This document shows positions 14,751 through 25,772 of a DNA stretch of 64,000 bases, piece by piece. The notes under the pieces were generated by a model. The model worked only from the letters and a program-made list of their open reading frames with translations, did no database searches and was not told where the DNA came from. The DNA comes from Bdellovibrionota bacterium (GTDB lineage Bacteria > Bdellovibrionota_C > UBA2361 > CALJRW01). Both the position numbers and the translations under genes were made by a program. The DNA lies in contig JBGSMD010000006.1 of assembly GCA_041740355.1 (NCBI GenBank), positions 64,001 to 128,000 of the forward strand, given 5' to 3'. Each line of letters begins with the position of its first letter. The first letter of the stretch is position 1.

Positions 14751-15134
14751 TTAATTTAGTTCAACGGCAACTAATAATTTTCTAACTTCGCTCAGTAATA
14801 TATCCGGTTTGCATGGTTTAACTAGGACGCTGTTACAACCAGCACTGATTGCTTCTTGATGAATCTCTTCTTCGTCCATTGCGGAAAATGCAATAATTGG
14901 ACATTTAACTCCCAGGGTTCTCAGTCGTTTTACTGTTTCAGTTCCTGATAATTTTGGCATCATCAGATCCATCACAATTAAATCGGGATGATCCTTGTTC
15001 TTTTCCAGCTCACTTATAGCTAGGAGTCCATTAATCGCCTGATCTACCTGAAAACCATCATTTTCAAATAGTATTTGAATTAGATCTAATTGAGATACGT
15101 TATCATCCACTAGTAAAATCCGTTTTCTTTTCAT
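14751..15134 (-). CDS. Single-domain response regulator (CheY-like)
   Basis: ILLVDDN, DLIVMDLMMP, KP. The ORF track labels it +, but the sequence has cat at 15132-15134 and tta at 14751, so it is on the minus strand. Confidence 0.93.
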   Translation of the reverse strand: MKRKRILLVDDNVSQLDLIQILFENDGFQVDQAINGLLAISELEKNKDHPDLIVMDLMMPKLSGTETVKRLRTLGVKCPIIAFSAMDEEEIHQEAISAGCNSVLVKPCKPDILLSEVRKLLVAVELN

Positions 15135-15481
15135 AATTGCCTTATCTAAAAGATGCCATTCTAAGATGCCTACTTAACTGAAACCTGTTCAAGCCTAGTG
15201 TCCTCACCAGATTAATATGCTAGATTTATCATATTTTAGATAGAGATCTGAATGATTTGGAAACACGATTTGTTTTTTGTTCAGTAGTCCGAAAGTTACA
15301 CATAAGCTAAAAATAACGTTGAATTCTTATTTTTAGCATTTTACAATCTTTTTTGTAACATTTAATAAGTTATCTTAATCATAGTAAGAGCAGCAGGGTG
15401 ATTTGAAATGAAAACCTGAAGGTTGCTGATTATTTTTTCAGATGAAAGCTGAAAAATTCGCTAACGCAAAGTTGAACAAAT

Positions 15482-16936
15482 ATGTTTGCTATAGATATTT
15501 TACCTTTAGTTGATTCCGAGCATCATTTGCCTGAAAGGTTTTTTCGTGGGCAACCATCTGTGATCATTGGCAGTGATCTTGAATGTCAGTTGCAACATCC
15601 CTTATTGAGAAATTTAAATTTTAACGTTTTAATTCAGAAGTTAGCTGGAAGTCAGTTTGAATGTCGCCAAATTTTTCATGAAAATTCTGATCGGGTTGGT
15701 TTTCAAGATATTTACGAATCTACTGCTAAGCTTAATCTTGGAACTGTCAAGATTCTGATAACAAGTATTGATGCTGATTTACTAGTCAAGGAGAACGAGG
15801 CTCCGGATCAAGCAGGCTATCGCTTGTTAAAACAGGCCGTCACTTCACAACTTACGACATTTCCCGCCTTAGAAATTAATAAACCATATAAAGCTGTAGT
15901 TTCTTTCAATCCCGATCAAGTACTAACTGTTGGTCGAGCGGATTATCATCATTTAGTGATTGAACAGTTCGATGTTTCTTCCGATCATGCCAGATTTGGC
16001 TTTGCAAATAATAAATATTGGGTTGAGGATTTAGGTTCTACCAATGGAACCTTTCTTAATAATCAACAAGTCTCTGGGAAGATATTTTTCGAACCGGGAG
16101 ACTCTGTTTTACTTGGAGCTAGCACAAAGATCACGGGATTGAAAAAAGTTGTTCAAAAAATAGTGGAGTCAGTGATTCCAGAACAAGTTTCAGTTAATAT
16201 CCCTCAAGAATCAGATCAATTACAGACCAACTCGTTACAAACATCTTATCCTGAGACTGAAGTGGAAGATCATCTTCCGACGGAAGAGCTTTCACTATCA
16301 CGGGTAGAAGAACTATTGGTCGATGTCCGTTATCCAGTATTGCTGGCTGTCAATAAGATTGCTCGTCCAGGGCGTTTAATTTTAAAGAAAGATCAAACTG
16401 TTTTAATTGGTCGTGATGCAAAATCAGATTTATGGCTAGGGGCACCCTATGTTTCTCGTGAGCATAATCAAATAACTTATTTAGGGGATGGTGAAATTCG
16501 AATTCAAGATCATAGTTCTAATGGTACTGCATATTCCGAAGGTATGATTCCGGCTGGCGGCGAATTACTTGTTAGTAATAAGTCTGAGATTTTACATTAT
16601 GGTTCTGGTTTAGCAGTTGCACTATGTTTTAACCAAGAAGACGAAGAAATATTTGTAGCTTCTGGTGGTCGTGCCGATGCTTTTATAGAAAATTTGCCAA
16701 CACCAATCAAGGAGCAAGTTTCTCCGCTGATGGCACCAAAGACTGCTACTTCCTCGAAAGAGAAGACATACCGTCCGTTACGTTCAAATGACGTTGTAAA
16801 AAATGGAGTAGTAGGAAAAATTCTTTATCGCTTCCTCAGTTTTGACATAAAAAGAAAGGTTTTCATTTGTTGTTTAAGCCTGCTAGTCATTGCGATATTT
16901 GTCTTATTAATATCAATAATCTTAACGTTTTTGTAA
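15482..16936 (+). CDS. Multi-FHA domain protein with C-terminal membrane anchor
   Basis: VGR..VSSDHA..EDLGSTNGTF and IGR..VSREH..QDHSSNGT FHA domains, a degenerate FHA-like N-terminus (IIGS), and a hydrophobic C-terminal TM. Confidence 0.85.
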   Translation: MFAIDILPLVDSEHHLPERFFRGQPSVIIGSDLECQLQHPLLRNLNFNVLIQKLAGSQFECRQIFHENSDRVGFQDIYESTAKLNLGTVKILITSIDADLLVKENEAPDQAGYRLLKQAVTSQLTTFPALEINKPYKAVVSFNPDQVLTVGRADYHHLVIEQFDVSSDHARFGFANNKYWVEDLGSTNGTFLNNQQVSGKIFFEPGDSVLLGASTKITGLKKVVQKIVESVIPEQVSVNIPQESDQLQTNSLQTSYPETEVEDHLPTEELSLSRVEELLVDVRYPVLLAVNKIARPGRLILKKDQTVLIGRDAKSDLWLGAPYVSREHNQITYLGDGEIRIQDHSSNGTAYSEGMIPAGGELLVSNKSEILHYGSGLAVALCFNQEDEEIFVASGGRADAFIENLPTPIKEQVSPLMAPKTATSSKEKTYRPLRSNDVVKNGVVGKILYRFLSFDIKRKVFICCLSLLVIAIFVLLISIILTFL

Positions 16937-16994
16937 TTTTTGTAATTTTTGTGATTTTTGGTGTTAATCGCACCTTTTGATGCAAAAATTCCAC

Positions 16995-17021
16995 TAAAGT
17001 TTCTAAATAGAGAGTCGATAT
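16995..17021 (+). promoter_or_regulatory. Sigma28 (FliA)-type promoter
   Basis: TAAAGTTT-N11-GTCGATAT versus consensus TAAAGTTT-N11-GCCGATAA (14/16). Confidence 0.7.
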
Positions 17022-17195
17022 TCTAAATAGCCAAACGATGTTAAGAGGCGTTTCATAATCTTTCCTAGTAAGGGTTAGTTATGATTAGCAATTGAAAAGA
17101 TAGATTTTTTGTCACCAATGAAAGTTTTTATTTTGCAGATTACTGCTGCAAAATTTACTTAGTGGCATTGTTAGCTTAATTTTATAATATTAAAT

Positions 17196-18263
17196 ATGTC
17201 AGCAGATAGTACAGAATTAACTTTTATTAGATGTTCATCATGTCGTAGCTTAGTGCCCGCAATGTCTACACGTTGTCGTATGTGTGGCGCAGATTTGCAA
17301 GCTAAGAAACCAACAGCTACTCCCGAGGCAACAGCCCCCAAGGAGAAAATTGAAGCAAAAGCACCAGCGATAGTTGCCAGCACGGAATTAGATCCCTTGA
17401 ATGAATTTTTAAGTGAAGAAGATCAATTCGATGATGTTGATATTGTTGATGATCAATTAGAAGCTTCAGATAAAGAATCTGATGAAGAATTCTCCGCTGG
17501 CAATCCTTCTGAATTTAGGGATGACTTTGAGGATGATTTTGATGAGGAACAAGCTATCAAAGAATTAGATAGTTTATTAGAAGAATTAAATGCGACTTCA
17601 GTTGCCACGGCAGTACCTATTCCAGTGGTTGCAACTCCTGTAGTACCAGTTGTAACTAAAGCAACAAAGTCTGAGCTGATTGATGTTTTAGAGCCAAAAG
17701 TTGTTCCGAAAAAAACCGAGACGAAAATCGAACCTGTCAAAGTTATGACTCCGGTTGCAGCTTCAGTAATTCCGCAAAATTTTAGTTCACCTGAACCAAA
17801 AATTCCAACAAAAGCTGAGATTAAAGAAGATATTATAAAAGAGGAGAATATTATGGAAAAAGAATTAAGAGCAGTGGAGAGTAAGGTAACTTCCATTAAG
17901 TCTGCTGGTATTAAACAACAACCTGATAAGCAAACAGCTTTATTCGGCTGGTTTGTTAGTTATCAAGAAGCGGTGGGCGTTTCTCGTGAAATTCGCGAAG
18001 GTAAATTTTTTGTTACCGCAAAAAGTTTAAAACCAAATGACCTAATTATCGAAGATGATAGTGTGTCTACGCCCCATGCGATGATTACAGTAAGTCATGA
18101 ACTTGGCTTTCAAATTCAAGATTTAATGAGTGAACATGGGTTGTATATAAAAAAACATGGATCTAAGAAGTATGAAGTGATTGATGATATTGAAGTTGTG
18201 GAGAATGGGGACTGGATTAGGTTCGGTAATATAGAATTCATGGTAGTAATAATGCCCGTCTAA
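17196..18263 (+). CDS. Zinc-ribbon / acidic linker / FHA domain protein
   Basis: CSSC..CRMCG N-terminus, D/E-rich middle, C-terminal VSTPHA..QDLMSEHG..DWIRFG FHA-like domain. Confidence 0.8.
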   Translation: MSADSTELTFIRCSSCRSLVPAMSTRCRMCGADLQAKKPTATPEATAPKEKIEAKAPAIVASTELDPLNEFLSEEDQFDDVDIVDDQLEASDKESDEEFSAGNPSEFRDDFEDDFDEEQAIKELDSLLEELNATSVATAVPIPVVATPVVPVVTKATKSELIDVLEPKVVPKKTETKIEPVKVMTPVAASVIPQNFSSPEPKIPTKAEIKEDIIKEENIMEKELRAVESKVTSIKSAGIKQQPDKQTALFGWFVSYQEAVGVSREIREGKFFVTAKSLKPNDLIIEDDSVSTPHAMITVSHELGFQIQDLMSEHGLYIKKHGSKKYEVIDDIEVVENGDWIRFGNIEFMVVIMPV

Positions 18264-18266
18264 AAA

Positions 18267-18424
18267 GTACAACCCAGCTTTTGGCGAATCTCGAATTTAA
18301 AACTAAGCTAAATTACTTCCCGCGGCGCCCTCTGGGCTTTGGGGGACAAGCAGCTGTACTCCAAGTACAGCTGCTTGTTTACCTTAGTTTAAAATCCGAC
18401 CTTCACTCAAAATCTGAATGGTAC
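18267..18424. repeat. MITE-like element with ~46-bp imperfect terminal inverted repeats
   Basis: gtac-ended arms pair along their length; internal perfect 15-bp stem acaagcagctgtact-cca-agtacagctgcttgt (18346-18378). Confidence 0.65.
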
Positions 18425-18555
18425 GGAATGCACACCAAACTTCTTTATGATTATATGGAGATAATCTGATTTTAATAGCTATCAGTTAATAACCAAAAGT
18501 AGAGAGTTTCAAAATCAGTGTGCTTATGTAAGAATAGCGGTAAGCTTAAAATCAA

Positions 18556-19398
18556 ATGAAAATAATTAAACTTACTTTTTTACTATTAATTCTTCTTTTT
18601 ACTAGTAGCTGTCGTGACGTCCAAGTCGCTGAAAATATTAATCAGTACCAGGCACATCAAATTATCAATAAGTTAAACTCAGCGGGAATAGACTCCAAGT
18701 ATTTTGCCAGCAATAACGGCAAATCTTATTCAGTTTCCGTGACCCAAAGAAATTATTTACCAGCAGTGGGAATTATTGCTTCTTCCGGAATTTTACCCAA
18801 GGTTGATTCAGATTTTAAAGAATTAACCGAGCCTAAAGGGTTCTTATCAAGCAATAAATCTTTTGATTTATTAAGACTAGACCGTGCTATCGCTGTAGAG
18901 TTGGAAGATGCTCTGCTAGGAGTTCCAAGTATCACCAACGCAAAGGTTGTTGTCCGTTTAAATAGTTTACCTGAAAACCAAATGCCCTCTGTCTCGATTA
19001 TTGCTGGAACACGTGATCAACAAACTGATCTTAGTTACATTACAGATTTAGTAAAAAATGCTATTCCCGGAATCCAAGACGATCATATTAAGCTAATCAT
19101 AGAGCGACTACCTGAATCTGAAGCTGATTTTTCGCTGATTGGAACAACACAGGCTCAGGGGAAGTTGTTGGCTGTCCCCTTAGTTCCGTTTTTAATCTGG
19201 CAGGTCCCTGCCGGGGTTGAATTAGAATTAGCTTGGACGGCAATTATAATTCTGATTTTTGCATTACTAGTGGGTTATTTTTTTGCAACACTTTTTCGTA
19301 AGCCGAAGTCTCGCGAACGTAATTCACTAAGTTTGCCAGAGTCAAGCTCTTTAGCGATAGGATTACAAAAAGATTTGAATGAGGAGGATTTTCGATGA
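18556..19398 (+). CDS. sctJ: Type III secretion inner-ring lipoprotein SctJ (YscJ/PrgK family)
   Basis: Lipobox TSSC, QAHQIINKLNSAGI, GILP, AIAVELEDAL..ITNAKV, PSVSI, LVKNAIPGI..IKL, C-terminal TM. Confidence 0.85.
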   Translation: MKIIKLTFLLLILLFTSSCRDVQVAENINQYQAHQIINKLNSAGIDSKYFASNNGKSYSVSVTQRNYLPAVGIIASSGILPKVDSDFKELTEPKGFLSSNKSFDLLRLDRAIAVELEDALLGVPSITNAKVVVRLNSLPENQMPSVSIIAGTRDQQTDLSYITDLVKNAIPGIQDDHIKLIIERLPESEADFSLIGTTQAQGKLLAVPLVPFLIWQVPAGVELELAWTAIIILIFALLVGYFFATLFRKPKSRERNSLSLPESSSLAIGLQKDLNEEDFR

Positions 19399-19640
19399 GC
19401 CCAGAGAATCAAGGAATGGTTTTCAATAAATTAGCTCCAGAGCAACAAGCTTTAGTCGCAATAGCTGTCTTGCTTGACGGTTTTGATAGTCCCTTTTTTT
19501 TAGGAGAGGATTTTAAGTTTGAGGATCAATTGCGGAAGGCCGCAGAAGAAATTGTAAAAGATGCTCCTGCGCAAAGGTTGCCATATGTGGCAACGTTACT
19601 GCGTCGAGCTTTAAATGAGTTAAGGAATCAAGATGAGTGA
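19395..19640 (+). CDS. Small helical protein, FliG N-terminal/SctK-like (tentative)
   Basis: KLAPEQQALVAIAVLLDG resembles the FliG N-terminal helix; translationally coupled between sctJ and the FliM/SctQ-like gene. Confidence 0.4.
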   Translation: MSPENQGMVFNKLAPEQQALVAIAVLLDGFDSPFFLGEDFKFEDQLRKAAEEIVKDAPAQRLPYVATLLRRALNELRNQDE

Positions 19641-20628
19641 GAATTGGCAATTAGCTGACGAAATTGAAGAACTTGATCCCAAGATAATTAAATATGGAAT
19701 TGGTTTTCTAAAATCACGTCCCCAGAATTGGATTCCTAACTTCTCAACTTTTTGGACTCCATTACTAGATCTTTTAAATTTCGAGGTAGCAGTATTAGAT
19801 ATTCAGCCAACATTTGAATTCCCATTAAGTGGAAGTGGAGTTTGGTTAGGAGCCTTTGAAAATAATAAAATTGGAATTAGTTGTGAACCCTTTGTCGCTA
19901 AATATTTAGCTAGTCTTTTTATTACAGATATTGATGCGGAGACAAGTAAGATTTTAGAGGATTATCTTGCTAGACGATTAATGCGTTCGCTCGTTGCTTC
20001 CTGGACTGGGCCGTCACTAAGTAATTTTAAATATTTTGGTGCCAGTTCCATTAAAGATTTCGATCCAAGTGCTGGTATTAAAATTACAATGTCGATAAAC
20101 GGTAGGCAAGTAACGCTTTGGTTATTAATTGAAGAGCTTTTACTCAAAAAATTGGATAATTTGTGGAGAAGGCAAACCACAACATTTAATATTAAAAAAT
20201 TAGAGGCTAGAAAATACCAATTAATTCTATTTACACAGCAAATCCAACTAGACGATTTAGAGTCATTATTGGTAATAGGAAATAAGATTTACCTTACTGG
20301 CTTGGATCCTAAGTATTTAGCAATGCGGGATGTGATTAATGACTCCACCTGGAAAGTTAAGCTTTACAGTAGCACCGATCAATTAGTAATGAAGATTCTT
20401 GAATCAAACGTTGCATATCAATTAGATCTAAGAGATTTATTAATGCGGGTGACGTTGCCTGAAATTACATTAAGTACTGAACAGCTACAGTTAAATAGTA
20501 GCGAATCATTCTTGCCTACTGGCTTAGCCCTGGGAACAGAGCTTATGATTAAGGTTTCTGATGAAACTGTGGCCCAGGCTAAGTTAGGCAAAGATACAAA
20601 CGGTTACTATGCTGAAATTCTAAACTAG
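19633..20628 (+). CDS. Divergent C-ring protein, FliM/SctQ-like
   Basis: Position between sctJ and sctR; ILEDYLARRLMRSLVASWTGP resembles the FliM middle domain; SpoA-like LDDLESLLVIGNKI and VAQAKLG segments. Confidence 0.5.
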   Translation: MSENWQLADEIEELDPKIIKYGIGFLKSRPQNWIPNFSTFWTPLLDLLNFEVAVLDIQPTFEFPLSGSGVWLGAFENNKIGISCEPFVAKYLASLFITDIDAETSKILEDYLARRLMRSLVASWTGPSLSNFKYFGASSIKDFDPSAGIKITMSINGRQVTLWLLIEELLLKKLDNLWRRQTTTFNIKKLEARKYQLILFTQQIQLDDLESLLVIGNKIYLTGLDPKYLAMRDVINDSTWKVKLYSSTDQLVMKILESNVAYQLDLRDLLMRVTLPEITLSTEQLQLNSSESFLPTGLALGTELMIKVSDETVAQAKLGKDTNGYYAEILN

Positions 20629-20698
20629 CTATCTTTATCAGGCGTTAGTTGAAAATTCCCCCTAGAATGCTTGAGGTAACTCAGTTATACTCCACAGC

Positions 20699-21271
20699 AT
20701 GTTAGAATTAGTGTTTATTATGTTGGTGTCCAGTGCTTTTATTAAGCTTGTAACGACACTCAGTATTTTTCAGTACGGATTAGGGCTTAAGAATTTTTCC
20801 TTTAGCATTATAGTTTTTCTATTTAGTCTAGTTTTAACCCTTTTTGTAATGCAACCTACCTGGGATAATTTGGGAGGTTGGCAAGGAGTAAGTAAAGCTA
20901 CCCCCGAACAAGTTGTTATCTTTCAAAGTCAAATTGATCCATTTGTTACTAAGCATAGTGATCCTGAAACGCTTGCAAAGTTACAAGCAATCTATCAAAA
21001 AAATCAGCCTGAAGTTTCAGTGACAGTTATTCCTTGGTCAGTAAAGATTACGGCCTTTATGATTACGGAACTAAAAGAAGCTTTTTATATTGGACTTTTA
21101 TTAATCATACCTTTTATTTTCCTAGATTTACTGACAGTTAATATTTTAATGGCGCTGGGAATTACTCAAATTTCAGCTTTAACTGTAGCACTACCCTTCA
21201 AATTGTTAATTTTTTATCTTTTCGATGGGTGGCAGTTATTAACTGAGAAATTGCTAAGCTTTTACAATTAA
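20699..21271 (+). CDS. sctR: Type III export gate protein SctR/FliP
   Basis: SAFIKL..GLG, LFVMQP, AFMITELKEAF.IG..IPF..LDL..NILMALG, LPFKLLIF..DGW. Confidence 0.92.
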   Translation: MLELVFIMLVSSAFIKLVTTLSIFQYGLGLKNFSFSIIVFLFSLVLTLFVMQPTWDNLGGWQGVSKATPEQVVIFQSQIDPFVTKHSDPETLAKLQAIYQKNQPEVSVTVIPWSVKITAFMITELKEAFYIGLLLIIPFIFLDLLTVNILMALGITQISALTVALPFKLLIFYLFDGWQLLTEKLLSFYN

Positions 21272-21276
21272 ATAAA

Positions 21277-21525
21277 ATGACTCCAGACTTATTAATTGAA
21301 TCATTAATTTATGCTGTACGTATTTTTTTATTGGTAACAATTCCACTTTTAGCCATCTTGACCTTGGCTGGTACTATTTCAGGAATGCTCCAAGCAATAA
21401 CAGGGATACGGGAAAGTTTACTGAATTATTTGACTAAGCTAATTGCCTTGTTTGCTGTGTTTTATTTCTTTTTGCCAAGCTTCTTACAAACTTTGGAAGA
21501 AATGTTTAATAACTACTACTTATGA
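21277..21525 (+). CDS. sctS: Type III export gate protein SctS/FliQ
   Basis: 82 aa; IPLL..AG..SGMLQAITGIRE..L.Y..KL matches the FliQ/SctS LQA.TQIQE motif; follows sctR. Confidence 0.88.
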   Translation: MTPDLLIESLIYAVRIFLLVTIPLLAILTLAGTISGMLQAITGIRESLLNYLTKLIALFAVFYFFLPSFLQTLEEMFNNYYL

Positions 21526-22097
21526 CACCATTAGTACTTAGTGGAGTAATAGTTTACTGTTGGGGACGGATTGGTTTTCTCTTGGGGTTAATATTTCTAA
21601 TTAGCTTACTTATTTATTTTACAGGCGAGCTGGGACTTTCGATCACACCTTTAGAAAGGCTCTTGTTAGTATCTTCCGTAATGAGCCTTCCGCTCAGTTT
21701 TTATTTAGCTGGTTCATATCTAGATAATTATTTAGCGGATAAATTTTCTTTCCAGTTACCTTTCGCGCTGGTGTTTCTTTTGTCTGGTAGTTATCTTTTA
21801 TTAGAGCAAGGACTTTTAATAGATCAACTTGACCATACATTAAATTTAATTAATGCCGCAGCTGATAATTCCTTCTTAATGATTCTGTTCGAAATAATTA
21901 GTAAGATAATTATGACAACCACAGGCCTAATGCTAATTGTTTTATTAATCGCGCTAATTTTTATTGTGCCACTTGCTTGGCTGATGAAAAATTCTCAATT
22001 GAATTTTAGTTGGAGTATCCCCAGTCTTAATTTCATATTGATATTATTTTTTTTAGCATCCGGCTACCAGTTAATTTTATCTAAATTATTATCCTAA
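21522..22097 (+). CDS. sctT: Divergent, shortened export gate protein SctT/FliR
   Basis: Very hydrophobic; between sctS and sctU; FYLAGSYLD and WLMKNSQLNFSWSIPS echo FliR AG..ID and RAAPQLN..P motifs. Confidence 0.6.
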   Translation: MTPLVLSGVIVYCWGRIGFLLGLIFLISLLIYFTGELGLSITPLERLLLVSSVMSLPLSFYLAGSYLDNYLADKFSFQLPFALVFLLSGSYLLLEQGLLIDQLDHTLNLINAAADNSFLMILFEIISKIIMTTTGLMLIVLLIALIFIVPLAWLMKNSQLNFSWSIPSLNFILILFFLASGYQLILSKLLS

Positions 22098-22772
22098 ATG
22101 GCTTTTAGCTTTCTAAATAACAGGCAGCTGCAAGACCTTCGTCGGCAAGGAATTTTCCAATATTCTTCTTGGACTAGTCGGCTTATTGTCTTAGTCAGTC
22201 TCTCTGGTTATTTTTATTTTTCTGGGGATAAGTTAATTCCTATGCTATTAAGTTTTTATCAAAATCTTTTCTCAATTCATGATTTAAACTTAATGGTAGT
22301 GGGGCAATTTTGGAGTAAGCTGTTATTTGATTTTATATTCATCCCAACATTACTTTTAATACTGTCAATTTTAATTGGGGGGTTATTACAGACTAAGTTT
22401 TATTTAAGATTTAATAGTCTGGCATTTGACTTGGGGCAACTTGGATTAAAGGCACAGTTGCAAAAAATTAAGCCAATTAAACGAATTTTATTTGGGCTAG
22501 CATTTCCGATACTATTTTTTATTCTATTAATGTTAACAATAAGTTGGGTAAAAAATCTACTTATTGCTTTTTCCTGGGCGCAGGAGGAATCTCTCGTTCA
22601 GTACTTATCTCTCTTCAAATCAATTGCTAGTCAAATTGCCATCGTTGCTGTATTATTAATATTCTTAGCAACGATCCTCAACTGGTTCTATTTCCGGCTT
22701 GAACATCGAAATATTGATCATGATTTGGCAGAAGATTCTGCCAATCAGAGTGCTATTGATAGTATTAGATAA
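22098..22772 (+). CDS. sctU: SctU/FlhB membrane domain only (cytoplasmic NPTH domain absent)
   Basis: RQLQDLRRQG..S, GGLLQTKF..AFDL..L, four TM segments; ORF ends shortly after TM4. Confidence 0.75.
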   Translation: MAFSFLNNRQLQDLRRQGIFQYSSWTSRLIVLVSLSGYFYFSGDKLIPMLLSFYQNLFSIHDLNLMVVGQFWSKLLFDFIFIPTLLLILSILIGGLLQTKFYLRFNSLAFDLGQLGLKAQLQKIKPIKRILFGLAFPILFFILLMLTISWVKNLLIAFSWAQEESLVQYLSLFKSIASQIAIVAVLLIFLATILNWFYFRLEHRNIDHDLAEDSANQSAIDSIR

Positions 22773-23014
22773 TGCCATACCCAAAAAAAGACTTAATATC
22801 GCATGCTCCTTTATTCTTGTTATTACCAGAACGTCGCTCTTTGGATGGCTTTGAGAAGTATCTGTCTGCTTTTTATTTAAGGCTGGAAAAACTTAAACAG
22901 TTAGAGCAAGAAGGGGATCAGTTATCAAGCGAAGATTTATCTGAACTAACAATGCTACGGCAAGTCGTCGATTGGCTTACACTCCATTCAGAAATTGAAA
23001 GTAATAGGAATTAA
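22772..23014 (+). CDS. Small hypothetical protein in T3SS-like operon
   Basis: 80 aa, helical, coupled to sctU (taatg overlap). Confidence 0.7.
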   Translation: MPYPKKDLISHAPLFLLLPERRSLDGFEKYLSAFYLRLEKLKQLEQEGDQLSSEDLSELTMLRQVVDWLTLHSEIESNRN

Positions 23015-23019
23015 TAAAA

Positions 23020-23439
23020 ATGAGTTTATTAGATGCTAAGTCCAGTAGTTATTCCGAGGAAGAGTTGGACTTGCTTTACTCTTTGGGTCTTTTTTATTTA
23101 GAAGCGGGACATTATCGTTCGGCAGAAATGATCTTTCAGGGCTTAACCGCAGTAGCCCCCAGTTTTGCTGATAGTTGGTTAGCAGCTTCAGCTACATTCT
23201 TTATGTTAGGTAATTTTGATCAAGCTAAACGCCATGCGCATCAAGCAATGCGTCTAAATCCCCATGATATTCAAGTACAATTACTTTATGTGACAATCTT
23301 ATTGTCTCAAGGTGAATTATCTGAGGCAGGAACTTTACTTGGTGAAATTAAAGAGCAGATTGATACTCGGGTGATTCAGAATCCCGATCAGATACGTTAT
23401 TTTAAAGCACAGTTAGCAAGATTCGAATTTGGTCAGTAA
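23020..23439 (+). CDS. TPR protein, T3SS chaperone-like (SctY/SycD type)
   Basis: LYSLGLFYLEAGHYRSAEMIFQGL..AP followed by two more TPR units; last gene of the operon. Confidence 0.75.
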   Translation: MSLLDAKSSSYSEEELDLLYSLGLFYLEAGHYRSAEMIFQGLTAVAPSFADSWLAASATFFMLGNFDQAKRHAHQAMRLNPHDIQVQLLYVTILLSQGELSEAGTLLGEIKEQIDTRVIQNPDQIRYFKAQLARFEFGQ

Positions 23440-23499
23440 GCATTTAGACTTTGGCAGATCTCAAAAGAAAAAACTATAAATATTTACGTAGGTCAGTAG

Positions 23500-23850
23500 T
23501 TACAACTTTTCTTTGTCATCATCTTCATCATTGTCACCCGAGTCAACTAATGCTGCATCGATAGTTTGCTTTACAGCTAATTCAATTGCCTCGCGTTGAG
23601 CTTGAGGTATTTTTGAGTTAGAAAAAAGCTTTTCAGCTTCTTGCTCTACCATTTGTAATAATTCGCTACGTTCTTGGAAAGACATTTCCCTCGTAGGCAT
23701 TCGACTAGTGCTAGAGACGCCAGTAATTGCTCCAACTTTAGAAGTTTTATTAACCTGAGAAATTGCTTCGGATTTACGTACCGAATTTAAGGCATCAGTT
23801 TTATTAATACCCTTAATTTTTTTATCATTTGAATCAACACCATCAACCAT
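23500..23850 (-). CDS. Hypothetical protein downstream of sigma factor (possible anti-sigma or secreted substrate)
   Basis: 116 aa, low-complexity S/K/T-rich N-terminus, helical C-terminus; GGAGA RBS upstream. Confidence 0.7.
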   Translation of the reverse strand: MVDGVDSNDKKIKGINKTDALNSVRKSEAISQVNKTSKVGAITGVSSTSRMPTREMSFQERSELLQMVEQEAEKLFSNSKIPQAQREAIELAVKQTIDAALVDSGDNDEDDDKEKL

Positions 23851-23878
23851 TTTATTCTCCGTTCATTTAGAAATCTAT

Positions 23879-24664
23879 TTAGTACTGTCCTGAAAATTCT
23901 GAAACTTTTTTTGTAAATATTCCAAAATCTTCTTGATTTGCTAAGACCATATTGGCATCTTTTAGTCCTGGCCTAATACGCGGGCAATCTAATTCTTTAC
24001 CTGTAGAAACACTTTTTTGTAGATACTCCATGATGACTTTGTGTTCTCGAATTACATTTAACTCATCGGTATTCCATTCCGTTGCAACACCACGAAGCGA
24101 TAGTCCTTCCCAGTAGACCTTCCAGACTAGTAATTGATGCAGAGGTTGTAGATCGGAGAGATTGATGATCAATTGTTTAAACTCAGTTGCTTCTTCCGGA
24201 TTGGAATCTTGAATTCCATGTTTAGTAGATATTAAACAGGCACTAATTAACAACTGTTGAATTCCAACGCGGACACCTTGTTCCGAATCATCATCACTCG
24301 GCAAAACACCTGATCTAATTTGAGGATATAATTCAAATAACTCAGCAGAAATTGCGCGGGCTAATCTTTCTGTGCGTTTAGAATTGCGACTATCTTTTTC
24401 CCAAGATTTACTATTACGGGCAGCTTCAGTAGATGCTTCATGAATTCTGCGGCGGGCATAACTCTTAAATGGCACACCTAAATTAGGATCAAATCTGCGA
24501 GCACAAAAAATTAATGCTTCAAAAGCAGCTCCATCTAGTCCATCATCTTGCCAATGTAAACTCCATCCCCGAGCAACCGATTTGGCAATTTTCTCTGCCC
24601 AAATTTGGTGTTCAAGTACTAACTCATTGGCTTCATCCATGCTTAAAATCGTTGTTTCGGTCAT
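23879..24664 (-). CDS. Divergent sigma-70 family factor, FliA/group 3-like
   Basis: Region 2 AAFEALIFCARRFDPNLGVPFKSYARRRI; region 4 LQPLHQLLVWKVYWEGLSLRGVA. Confidence 0.8.
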   Translation of the reverse strand: MTETTILSMDEANELVLEHQIWAEKIAKSVARGWSLHWQDDGLDGAAFEALIFCARRFDPNLGVPFKSYARRRIHEASTEAARNSKSWEKDSRNSKRTERLARAISAELFELYPQIRSGVLPSDDDSEQGVRVGIQQLLISACLISTKHGIQDSNPEEATEFKQLIINLSDLQPLHQLLVWKVYWEGLSLRGVATEWNTDELNVIREHKVIMEYLQKSVSTGKELDCPRIRPGLKDANMVLANQEDFGIFTKKVSEFSGQY

Positions 24665-24986
24665 CTTAAGTATTTTACATTAAAAATTTAGAATTCGCCA
24701 TAAGTTTATAGAAGCAGTTCCCTAAGAATCCACGACAATTACTTATGTGCAATGCACTAATCGCAGACTGGCTATTCAAATCTTGGCTAAATCCCAAGTT
24801 TGAGTTCCTAAAAACAATAAGCTTAGTAAACCCAAGGGAAATTCCTGAAATGTTCTTCAGAAATTATTTTTGAATTTACTATAAATTTTAAGCTGTTCAA
24901 ATTTAATCGAAGTGATTTTTGAACCAGCCGTGGATTCCAAAAGTTAATGTTGCTATACATTTCCTTTTGGAGTCCACTCATAAGGG

Positions 24987-25772
24987 ATGTTTGTTATGAG
25001 TAATAGTCGTTCAGAAGAAGCTAAAACTAAAGCTAAAATATATGATTTCGCAAAAATAGTTGAGCGTAAGGAATCAATTGCGACCCACCTAAGTATCCAT
25101 GAAAAGAATGGTTTAATCATGAAAAACAGAATTCAGGGCCGTAAATTAGCCTGTAGCATGCTAAGAAAATGGAACTGTCGACTAGATTTAGAAGAAGTTG
25201 ATAGTATCGTAGACTTATCTCTCTGCGAAGCAGTAAAGTATTTTGACCCGGCCAAAGGAGTGAATTTTCTAACTTTCCTTTTCTATCATTTACGTGGAAA
25301 TTTAATTCGTACAATTAAAATCCAAGCGAATCAAACTGCTATTCCTTTAGAGTTTACCGATGAGAATATGGAAAGTGGCTATATCGGTCATGAAAGAATT
25401 AATACTGCTGATGCTTTTGAAACTTTTGGAACTGTCCAGAAGTCTCCCGACCAGCAATTACAAGAAGGCCAATTTTTCGAATTAACAAAACTTGCTTGTG
25501 AAAAATTAACGGATCTGGAGCGAGAAATTATCAAAAATGTTTTTATTCATGAGGAGCAGGTAACCCAACTTGCACAAGATTTAAATTATAGTCGCTGTCA
25601 TATTTCCAGATTAAAAACAGCTACGATTAATAAATTAAGATCAGAGATCGAAAAAATTACAGGCGAGAAAATTTCTGTATCGGAAGGAGTAGATAGTCCT
25701 CGTCGAGCACTAGATGTTAGACATCGAGTTCGTGTGCACAAGGTTAGGAAGGTAAAAAAGATAGCTGCTTAA
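24987..25772 (+). CDS. Sigma-70 family factor, FliA/group 3-like
   Basis: SLCEAVKYFDPAKGVNFLTFLFYHLRG; LTDLEREII..TQLAQDLNYSRCHISRL HTH. Confidence 0.88.
   Translation: MFVMSNSRSEEAKTKAKIYDFAKIVERKESIATHLSIHEKNGLIMKNRIQGRKLACSMLRKWNCRLDLEEVDSIVDLSLCEAVKYFDPAKGVNFLTFLFYHLRGNLIRTIKIQANQTAIPLEFTDENMESGYIGHERINTADAFETFGTVQKSPDQQLQEGQFFELTKLACEKLTDLEREIIKNVFIHEEQVTQLAQDLNYSRCHISRLKTATINKLRSEIEKITGEKISVSEGVDSPRRALDVRHRVRVHKVRKVKKIAA

Follow-up and report, generated by a model that had tools for sequence, protein, structure and literature searches.

A gasket of methionines in the pore of the export gate (the M-gasket), a plug supplied by FliR (the R-plug) and salt bridges of FliQ have been proposed as a universal mechanism that keeps the membrane tight during fast export by type III secretion systems (T3SSs; Husing 2021, PMC8239009). 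As described in that article, the R-plug comprises FliR residues 106-122 of Salmonella (~17 residues, including SFATFVDPGSHL) and takes the position of a FliP M-loop. Salmonella mutants with polar residues (Ser, Thr, Asn or Gln) at M-loop positions 2 and 3 are reported there to leak ions, deletion of the R-plug to let ions leak with flagellar function intact, and a standing leak to cost fitness (legend of its Figure 8); the article also links an Asp in FliQ to polar M-loops and cites the four-glutamine gate of MacAB-TolC as an example of polar gating. The "Myxo" non-flagellar T3SS (NF-T3SS) of Myxococcus xanthus, also named T3SS*, is described as cooperating in predation with a Tad-like pilus and as having a cluster devoid of genes for secretin, needle and translocon (Abby & Rocha 2012, PMC3459982; Herrou et al. 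2025, PMC12075869). Here, we analyzed a stretch of 64,000 nucleotides from a Bdellovibrionota bacterium (assembly GCA_041740355.1, contig JBGSMD010000006.1, positions 64,001 to 128,000; hereafter the window, to which all positions refer unless a contig is named), taken from a draft genome that is 97% complete, and we describe the export gate encoded in it by sctR, sctS, a gene at the sctT position and sctU. From their sequences, three canonical gate-control elements, i.e., the M-gasket, the length of the R-plug loop and the switch domain of SctU/FlhB, are predicted to be replaced or missing throughout the clade to which this gate belongs.

The pore subunit SctR (20699-21271, + strand) matched PF00813 with 123.9 bits (cut-off 26.9) over profile positions 10-191 of 191, and a phmmer search against PDB chains returned eight distinct sequences, the best being the FliP chain 6s3r_A (E = 3.8e-23). 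An initial annotation, made from the DNA letters, had called SctR well conserved; this was correct at the level of the family, whereas the protein fell below every NCBIfam cut-off for SctR or FliP (108.5 vs. 208.6 bits for TIGR01102, 117.3 vs. 179 for NF009438, and 109.8 vs. 217.45 for the FliP equivalog TIGR01103). In a canonical M-gasket each FliP/SctR subunit provides a methionine-rich M-loop. Residues 155-157 of SctR (21161-21169, + strand) read Ile-Thr-Gln in place of Met-Met-Met, with phmmer aligning lmalgitqis opposite lmamgmmmls or lmalgmmmvp of FliP. The annotation had reported LGITQ for LGMMM at exactly these nucleotides, and the PDB alignments bore it out, as alignment to FliP sequences did for its second observation on SctR, a hairpin-1 loop that reads LGLKNFSF (20780-20803, + strand) in place of LGxQQxPPN. 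In the PDB and family alignments, the segment glglknfsfs lies opposite alglqqtpsn or algtpsappn of family members. SctR retains the ELK, PF..D, and DGW motifs.

Searches of the genomes of 41 relatives found FliP-family genes in all of them, mostly three per genome. Only two, together with one recognizable FliR, are present in the window genome and in each of its two closest relatives. An alignment of 85 sequences resolved into three groups, namely a group that includes the SctR described above (clade A), a second non-flagellar group (cluster B), and flagellar FliP. Their M-loops read LG-[IVM]-[TQ]-[QN] in clade A, GMMM or GM[YFH]M in cluster B, and Met-Ile-Thr in 30 of 30 flagellar FliP sequences. 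In a tree of 65 rows, from which 20 of the 30 flagellar rows were left out, clade A formed a single branch (support of 100 in the Shimodaira-Hasegawa-like approximate likelihood-ratio test, SH-aLRT), set by long branches away from cluster B and from the flagellar and injectisome group (SH-aLRT 98). A clade-A profile built from 25 sequences was then searched against 1.84 billion representatives, giving 3952 proteins at E ≤ 0.001 and 604 at E ≤ 1e-30, and motifs were counted in the best 150 cluster representatives (clusters at 50% identity). None of these had Met-Met-Met and 13 had any Met in the M-loop. Position 1 was hydrophobic in 148/150, position 2 was Thr in 79 (Ser, Thr, Asn or Gln in 108), and position 3 was Gln in 97 (polar in 131); the clade-A consensus is hydrophobic-Thr-Gln. 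The hairpin-1 loop retained QQ in one representative and PP in one, and had the consensus G-L-G-L-x-G-x-G-F-G. Since the altered motifs recur in all orthologs examined, they are not due to chance, and the near-invariant hydrophobic first position together with the prevalence of Gln at the third indicates a selected motif rather than a loss. Of 124 genomes of the phylum, 91 belong to the order; 61 of these, and a single genome from outside the order, had a match of clade-A strength (at least 167 bits).

SctS (21277-21525, + strand) matched PF01313 with 40.9 bits (cut-off 25) and scored below the NCBIfam equivalog cut-off (43.2 vs. 88.9). When aligned with E. coli FliQ, AscS, and a Rhizobium SctS, all 24 clade-A SctS sequences kept the inter-subunit salt-bridge pair of the E46-K54 type (13 with Asp, 11 with Glu, and a Lys or Arg partner); in SctS of the window the pair is E (...GIRE...) and K (...LTK...). 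The next gene (21522-22097, + strand) encodes a membrane protein of 191 amino acids at the SctT position, a length that the initial annotation had given correctly. Its reading frame cannot be longer, since it begins at the first start codon past the upstream stop and abuts sctU. The protein is 50-70 amino acids shorter than FliR/SctT, and in all 22 orthologous loci its counterpart (182-209 amino acids) is flanked by SctS and SctU, in frames that overlap or abut. An AlphaFold2 (AF2) model made from a 22-sequence alignment (pLDDT 82.1) showed a helical-hairpin membrane protein with five long helices. According to DSSP, the helix containing AGSYLD (21708-21725) is followed in this model, at the position of the FliR R-plug, by a loop of only 8 residues (residues 73-80; 21738-21761, + strand). 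In 20 of 22 clade-A orthologs no more than 10 residues lie between the G-x-LLD motif and the helix that follows, compared with ~18 residues from the A-G-E-I-I-G motif to the next helix in E. coli FliR, which include the SFATFVDP plug motif. A profile alignment to cluster-B FliR was collinear and had a 10-residue gap at the plug, at a non-significant E of 0.21. A shortened plug after AGSYLD, which had been noted tentatively, is therefore consistent with the modeled loop, with the orthologs and with the alignment gap, but falls short of proof at that E value, and it depends on taking the 191-amino acid protein as a diverged SctT.

That assignment was approached in several ways. Searches of Pfam, NCBIfam, and PDB sequences with the 191-amino acid protein found no match (none to PF01311 at E ≤ 0.1), the profile of the 22 orthologs searched against the PDB returned chance rows and no FliR, and Foldseek found no PDB match to the AF2 model at E ≤ 0.001. 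With hhalign, the 22-sequence profile reached E 0.21 against canonical FliR and against cluster-B FliR, whereas the comparison of cluster-B FliR with E. coli FliR gave a probability of 99.2%. A database search with the same profile returned nine proteins, none with a Pfam domain, and so no bridging sequences. In a VIA structure comparison, eight FliR/SpaR-type chains were among the top 15 rows at Z 5.0-6.0, which is below a G protein-coupled receptor at Z 9.6 and no different from what helical bundles in general would give. In the Atlas, the three closest clusters carry Bac_export_1, with low scores (0.76-0.78). Prediction of a complex of four SctR copies with the 191-amino acid protein scored 0.00 in two runs without controls, and this carries no weight for or against binding. 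A six-frame search of the genome with PF01311 identified the cluster-B copy only. By gene order and architecture only, the protein may be SctT.

SctU (22098-22772, + strand; 224 amino acids) matched PF01312 with 41.8 bits (cut-off 24.4) at profile positions 10-205 of 335. Its N-terminal four-helix membrane domain is present, and the protein stops ~20 residues past transmembrane helix 4 (TM4). Clade-A SctU proteins range from 206 to 242 amino acids; 14 of 14 end just after the post-TM4 linker and 14 of 14 have no NP[TE]H, and no separate FlhB-C gene was found in the window genome. Judged by their sequences, clade-A SctU proteins are without the cytoplasmic NPTH autocleavage domain, i.e., the substrate-specificity switch, a feature that the initial annotation had overlooked. 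Taken with the altered M-gasket and the apparently reduced R-plug length, this predicted clade-wide loss supports its suggestion of a differently gated pore. An EscU/YscU/HrcU-family gene of Rhizobium etli p42d (locus L078, 4739-5536; 265 amino acids) also has no NPTH.

The four gate genes belong to one module of 15 genes that spans 14751-25772 and is conserved in an order of Bdellovibrionota-like bacteria. It begins with a stand-alone response-regulator receiver transcribed divergently from the operon (14751-15134, - strand; PF00072, 91.3 bits), which has a homolog at the matching position in 10 of 16 relatives' loci. There follow, on the + strand, an SctD-like inner-ring protein that contains two FHA domains and is anchored in the membrane by its C-terminus (15482-16936; PF00498 FHA, 87.3 bits in two stretches; PF16697 Yop-YscD_cpl, 49 bits vs. 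a cut-off of 33.2), and a second FHA protein, kept in synteny among relatives, with a zinc-ribbon-like N-terminus, an acidic linker, and a C-terminal FHA domain (17196-18263; FHA, 27.7 bits; Yop-YscD_cpl, 22.9 bits, below cut-off). Next are an SctJ-like lipoprotein of the inner-membrane ring (18556-19398; PF01514 YscJ_FliF, 38 bits vs. 24.4; TIGR02544, 61.7 bits, below the cut-off of 161.95), a conserved 81-amino acid protein assigned to no family (19395-19640; ortholog in 13 of 16 loci), and a protein of 331 amino acids with a CheC-like middle domain and two SpoA domains (19633-20628). The profile of this last protein matched YscQ-C (3uep, E = 7.4e-4), FliY, and FliN, and Foldseek matched its AF2 model (pLDDT 82.3) to FliM (8umd_C, E = 5.6e-7, prob 1.00) and to the FliM(SPOA)::FliN fusion 4yxb; on the strength of these profile and fold matches it is a predicted FliM/SctQ-like protein. 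In 13 of the 16 loci of relatives, SctR is preceded by the genes for SctJ, the 81-amino acid protein and the 331-amino acid protein.

Downstream of sctU, the + strand encodes a conserved 80-amino acid protein assigned to no family and kept in synteny (22772-23014), and a TPR protein that resembles class II T3SS chaperones below the cut-offs (23020-23439; TPR_19, 47.2 bits; SctY, 37.8 vs. 70; LcrH_SycD, 37.0 vs. 104.8), the gene for which is downstream in 15 of 16 loci. On the - strand, a 116-amino acid protein (23500-23850) is encoded with a divergent sigma-70-family factor that has a weakly FliA/WhiG-like N-terminus (23879-24664; Sigma70_r2, 17.2 bits; TIGR02479, 30.6 bits, below cut-off) and is 96% identical between the two species of the genus. 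The adjacency of the two genes is conserved, and the 116-amino acid protein is a candidate anti-sigma factor by this position. The layout of this pair (23500-24664, - strand) recalls FlgM/FliA, in which the anti-sigma factor is exported through the gate. A second divergent sigma-70-family factor (24987-25772, + strand; Sigma70_r4, 27.8 bits; TIGR02937, 57 bits vs. 42.9) completes the module. Pfam and NCBIfam searches assigned no family to the 81-, 80-, and 116-amino acid proteins, nor to two proteins of 96 and 126 amino acids encoded elsewhere in the genome. All T3SS-type proteins of the module scored below the NCBIfam equivalog cut-offs, and by sequence they are distant relatives of flagellar and injectisome sets alike.

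None of the genomes examined showed a disrupted reading frame in the module. In a comparison of the two species of the genus, most module genes had nonsynonymous divergence (dN) of 0.03-0.17 and synonymous divergence (dS) above 1.3 (saturated or undefined), and dN was far below dS in every module gene for which dS could be estimated. SctT and SctU had dN of 0.41-0.43 and within-genus identities of 53 and 50%, compared with 84% for SctR and 77-96% for the other module genes. These values indicate purifying selection on the module, its two most reduced subunits changing faster.

We also surveyed the rest of the window genome for the parts with which such a gate commonly works. No FliI/SctN ATPase exceeded the cut-off in this genome (best match to TIGR01026, 244.6 bits vs. 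379.5), and the ATPase-like matches sit in the F1 operon atpHAGDC, on contig C26, and in a second ATP-synthase-like operon. The latter (contig C64:64000-72300) encodes beta- and alpha-like subunits of 496 and 509 amino acids with small genes between them, a layout reminiscent of N-type ATPase operons. FliH/SctL (PF02108) had no match in the window genome, nor did the needle protein SctF (PF09392), for which the search had no positive control (0 of 14 control genomes over the cut-off). Two PF00263 secretin genes were found, on contigs C54 and C46, neither of which carries gate or SctV genes. The flagellar rod family Flg_bb_rod (PF00460) had no match in the window genome, while in most other genomes of the order the third FliP-family set belongs to a separate complete flagellar set; to judge from these sequences, the family has apparently lost its flagellum and kept both unusual gates, that of clade A and that of cluster B.

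Two FHIPEP/SctV genes (527.6 and 380.4 bits) are present in the window genome, both outside the clade-A module. One encodes a protein of 613 amino acids and belongs to a module (contig C20:70739-75774) with a FliA-like sigma factor, a second SctJ-like lipoprotein, a 96-amino acid protein, and a TPR lipoprotein; in one relative (G040), this module stands back to back with the clade-A genes for SctR, SctS, SctT and SctU. The other encodes a full-length SctV of 693 amino acids and is the seventh gene of a Tad-pilus operon (contig C30:42628-54777), in the order Ser/Thr kinase, TadZ-like ATPase, RcpC/CpaB, CpaF, TadB, TadC, SctV, and a second kinase-like protein. The order from TadZ to the second kinase was kept in 10 of 10 relatives examined, and the leading kinase gene was absent from two of them. 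Co-occurrence was uninformative as to which SctV pairs with the gate, since nearly all 41 genomes carry every paralog.

Among described systems, the flagellar FliPQR-FlhB gate (PDB 6F2D, 6S3L) shares with clade A the PF00813 and PF01313 subunits, the ELK, PF..D, and DGW motifs, the FliQ-type salt bridge, the P-Q-R-B gene order, and an FlhB-type membrane domain. It differs in having MMM and LGxQQxPPN where clade A has ITQ and a Gly-rich loop, a cytoplasmic FlhB domain that clade A does not have, and an R subunit that is ~70 amino acids longer, with a 17-residue plug in place of a loop of ~8-10 residues; in addition, the clade-A module contains no FliO, FliH, FliI, FliJ, rod or hook gene, and the clade branches apart from flagellar and injectisome sequences. 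As for the features of an injectisome, SctD-, SctJ-, and SctQ-type proteins are present in the clade-A module, whereas SctN and SctL were not found in the window genome and no secretin is encoded with the system. The Hrp system of Ralstonia is an effector-secreting injectisome. In the HrcR of R. solanacearum (one sequence), Leu-Ser-Gln lies opposite Ile-Thr-Gln within the same N-x-L-M-A-L-G ... P-F-K-L-L context, so that a hydrophobic-hydroxyl-Gln loop occurs in a known effector-secreting T3SS; unlike clade A, HrcR keeps LGVQQVPPN, groups with the injectisome references, and is part of a complete injectisome. Cluster B (contig C64:18366-25200 in the window genome) is likewise a non-flagellar, non-injectisome P-Q-R-B set, found across the order in a module of its own (20 of 20 loci), and its FlhB is also shortened (~245-290 amino acids). 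It differs from clade A in that it keeps GMMM or GM[YFH]M and a QQxP loop, its FliR is recognizable (PF01311) and has a loop of plug length, and its FlhB ends at the NPTH position rather than just after TM4. Cluster B encodes proteins of 126, 96, and 257 amino acids, a FliP-like protein, FliQ, FliR, the shortened FlhB, and a GAF/PAS histidine kinase of ~1000 amino acids; the FliP-like gene and the kinase occur together in 19 of 20 relatives' loci, and the twentieth ends at the contig end.

By gene content, the functionally closest known system would on our best reading be the needle-less T3SS* of Myxococcus (mxan_2434-2464), a likeness drawn from gene content alone. As T3SS* is described, the two share an export apparatus, inner-membrane rings, and a platform protein, in a cluster that encodes neither secretin nor needle nor translocon (Abby & Rocha 2012, PMC3459982; Herrou et al. 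2025, PMC12075869). Further points of likeness are a lineage whose relatives are bacterial predators and a link to Tad pili, which here takes the form of an SctV paralog inside a Tad operon in all ten relatives examined. A difference is that T3SS* has an SctN ATPase, which served as a fluorescent marker (PMC12075869), whereas none was found in the window genome.

Taken together, clade A is rather more probably than otherwise a working protein gate, driven by proton-motive force and devoted to a single substrate class that it delivers to the periplasm, i.e., a lineage-specific, needle-less, T3SS-like export apparatus. We read it as a working protein-conducting gate because the pore-stabilizing motifs, the ring and platform proteins (FHA-SctD, SctJ, and the FliM/SctQ-like protein), and the chaperone-like TPR protein are all kept. 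From the motifs, their clade-wide conservation, the gene content, the synteny, and the selection acting on the module, we infer how such a gate might be sealed and driven, what it might carry, and where to. The pore complex has been remodeled as a set, with a hydrophobic-Thr-Gln M-loop, a Gly-rich hairpin, a reduced subunit at the SctT position, and the membrane domain only of SctU. The helical pore would be held together by the ELK, PF..D, and DGW motifs of SctR and by the Glu/Asp-Lys/Arg salt bridge of SctS, and five Ile or Val residues and a Thr/Gln ring, rather than fifteen methionines, would surround the substrate. With no ATPase of its own, the gate would draw on the proton-motive force by way of one or the other SctV paralog. 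One substrate class would be handled, as there is no switch domain, and delivery would be into the periplasm, as no needle gene was found and no secretin gene lies near the cluster.

Several points weigh against this interpretation. The gate is known here from its genes, from which protein export is a deduction. That ATPase, FliH, and needle are missing is known from a single draft genome, 97% complete, and depends on the sensitivity of hidden Markov models. The partner SctV points two ways, with the adjacency in G040 favoring the 613-amino acid protein and the logic of FHA domains and kinases favoring the 693-amino acid protein. Homology of the 191-amino acid protein to FliR/SctT received no statistical support from sequence, profile or fold searches. 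SctT and SctU evolve ~4 times faster than the other module genes, which could mean relaxed constraint, and the HrcR precedent is a single sequence. Finally, in the Salmonella data, leakage of ions is increased both by Thr or Gln at the second and third positions of the loop and by shortening of the plug, and by analogy the clade-A pore may be open or leaky.

The last of these points leads to an alternative that the initial annotation had raised in proposing that the system is possibly not a protein exporter: without Met gasket, plug, and SctU switch, the complex would form a conduit, either permanently more open or of different selectivity, through which ions, small molecules or peptides pass, or else would serve as a membrane scaffold. 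The leakage reported for polar M-loops and for plug deletion (Husing 2021, PMC8239009), the change of all three control elements together across the clade, and the failure to find a T3SS ATPase, FliH, or, in a search without positive control, a needle in the window genome would fit such a conduit. However, the plug deletion in Salmonella is reported in the same article to have preserved flagellar function, and a leak to be costly, yet the module is under purifying selection. Nor is Met-Met-Met needed for protein export, because the single HrcR sequence has Leu-Ser-Gln and the flagellar FliP of this order reads S-M-S-M-I-T-L-P-P, with Met-Ile-Thr in every sequence; a Rhizobium SctR has Met-Gln-Met at the M-loop. 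Flagellar FliP must export flagellar subunits. In addition, the FliM/SctQ-like protein, the weakly chaperone-matching TPR protein, FHA-SctD, and SctJ have no obvious role in a small-molecule channel, the salt bridge is kept in 24 of 24 SctS sequences, and the bias at M-loop positions 1 and 3 (148 and 97 of 150) is that of a selected motif. We therefore consider a conduit quite unlikely, and the suggestion that the system does not export protein was not upheld. Decay of a flagellar or injectisome set, with the odd motifs due to drift, is very improbable. Many canonical parts are indeed missing, and fast divergence has left SctT and SctU with within-genus identities of 53 and 50%, vs. 84% for SctR. 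However, no broken frame occurred in any genome examined, dN remained far below dS wherever dS could be estimated, and the replacement motifs are themselves conserved (79 of 150 representatives with Thr, 97 with Gln). In addition, 61 of the order's 91 genomes carry the module (matches of at least 167 bits), and in relatives a complete flagellar set is encoded separately alongside it.

An alternative that bears on only part of our interpretation is that the 191-amino acid gene encodes an unrelated small membrane protein that replaced SctT, in which case no plug had existed in the first place and the pore is closed by another subunit or stoichiometry. The absence of matches in the Pfam, NCBIfam, and PDB sequence and profile searches, the hhalign E of 0.21 beside the 99.2% of cluster-B FliR against E. 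coli FliR, the nine database relatives free of Pfam domains, and the lack of a Foldseek match at E ≤ 0.001 are what such a replacement would lead one to expect. Against it, the gene lies between SctS and SctU in all 22 loci with overlapping or abutting frames, the protein has an all-helical hairpin architecture and the right order of size, and the profile alignments are collinear, with A-G-x-x-L-D matching G-E-L-x-D of the FliR family. The eight FliR/SpaR-type chains in the top 15 VIA rows are collinear too, at a non-decisive Z of 5-6, the nearest Atlas clusters carry Bac_export_1 at their low score, and no other FliR-like gene is available to the clade-A gate, PF01311 leading to the cluster-B copy only. 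On balance, replacement seems unlikely. We also entertain, as a doubtful extension of the protein-gate interpretation, that clade A is an undescribed export-gate lineage, a minimal protein-conducting T3SS core without M-gasket, R-plug, SctU/FlhB switch or ATPase, which would pair with the SctV of the Tad operon flanked by two Ser/Thr kinase genes. Phospho-signaling from kinase to FHA-SctD might then open the gate on contact with prey, and effectors might pass through the periplasm to the Tad machinery, making the system a Bdellovibrionota counterpart of the Myxococcus Kil/T3SS* predation complex.

Among the papers searched on Bdellovibrionota T3SSs, on needleless systems of Bdellovibrio, and on M-loops of non-flagellar FliP/SctR, we found no description of clade A or of a methionine-free SctR, though the supplementary tables of M-loop variants in Husing 2021 may list such variants. 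With at least 150 sequence clusters at 50% identity in which only the salt bridges are kept, clade A would constitute a large natural exception to the proposed universal seal. Its sequences allow one to ask which elements of the gate serve export and which serve sealing only, and whether a polar Gln ring can replace methionines. Needle-less T3SS-like machines have so far been studied in Myxococcus, and these sequences would extend them to a further lineage of probable predators of bacteria, one in which an SctV gene has been fused into a Tad-pilus operon.

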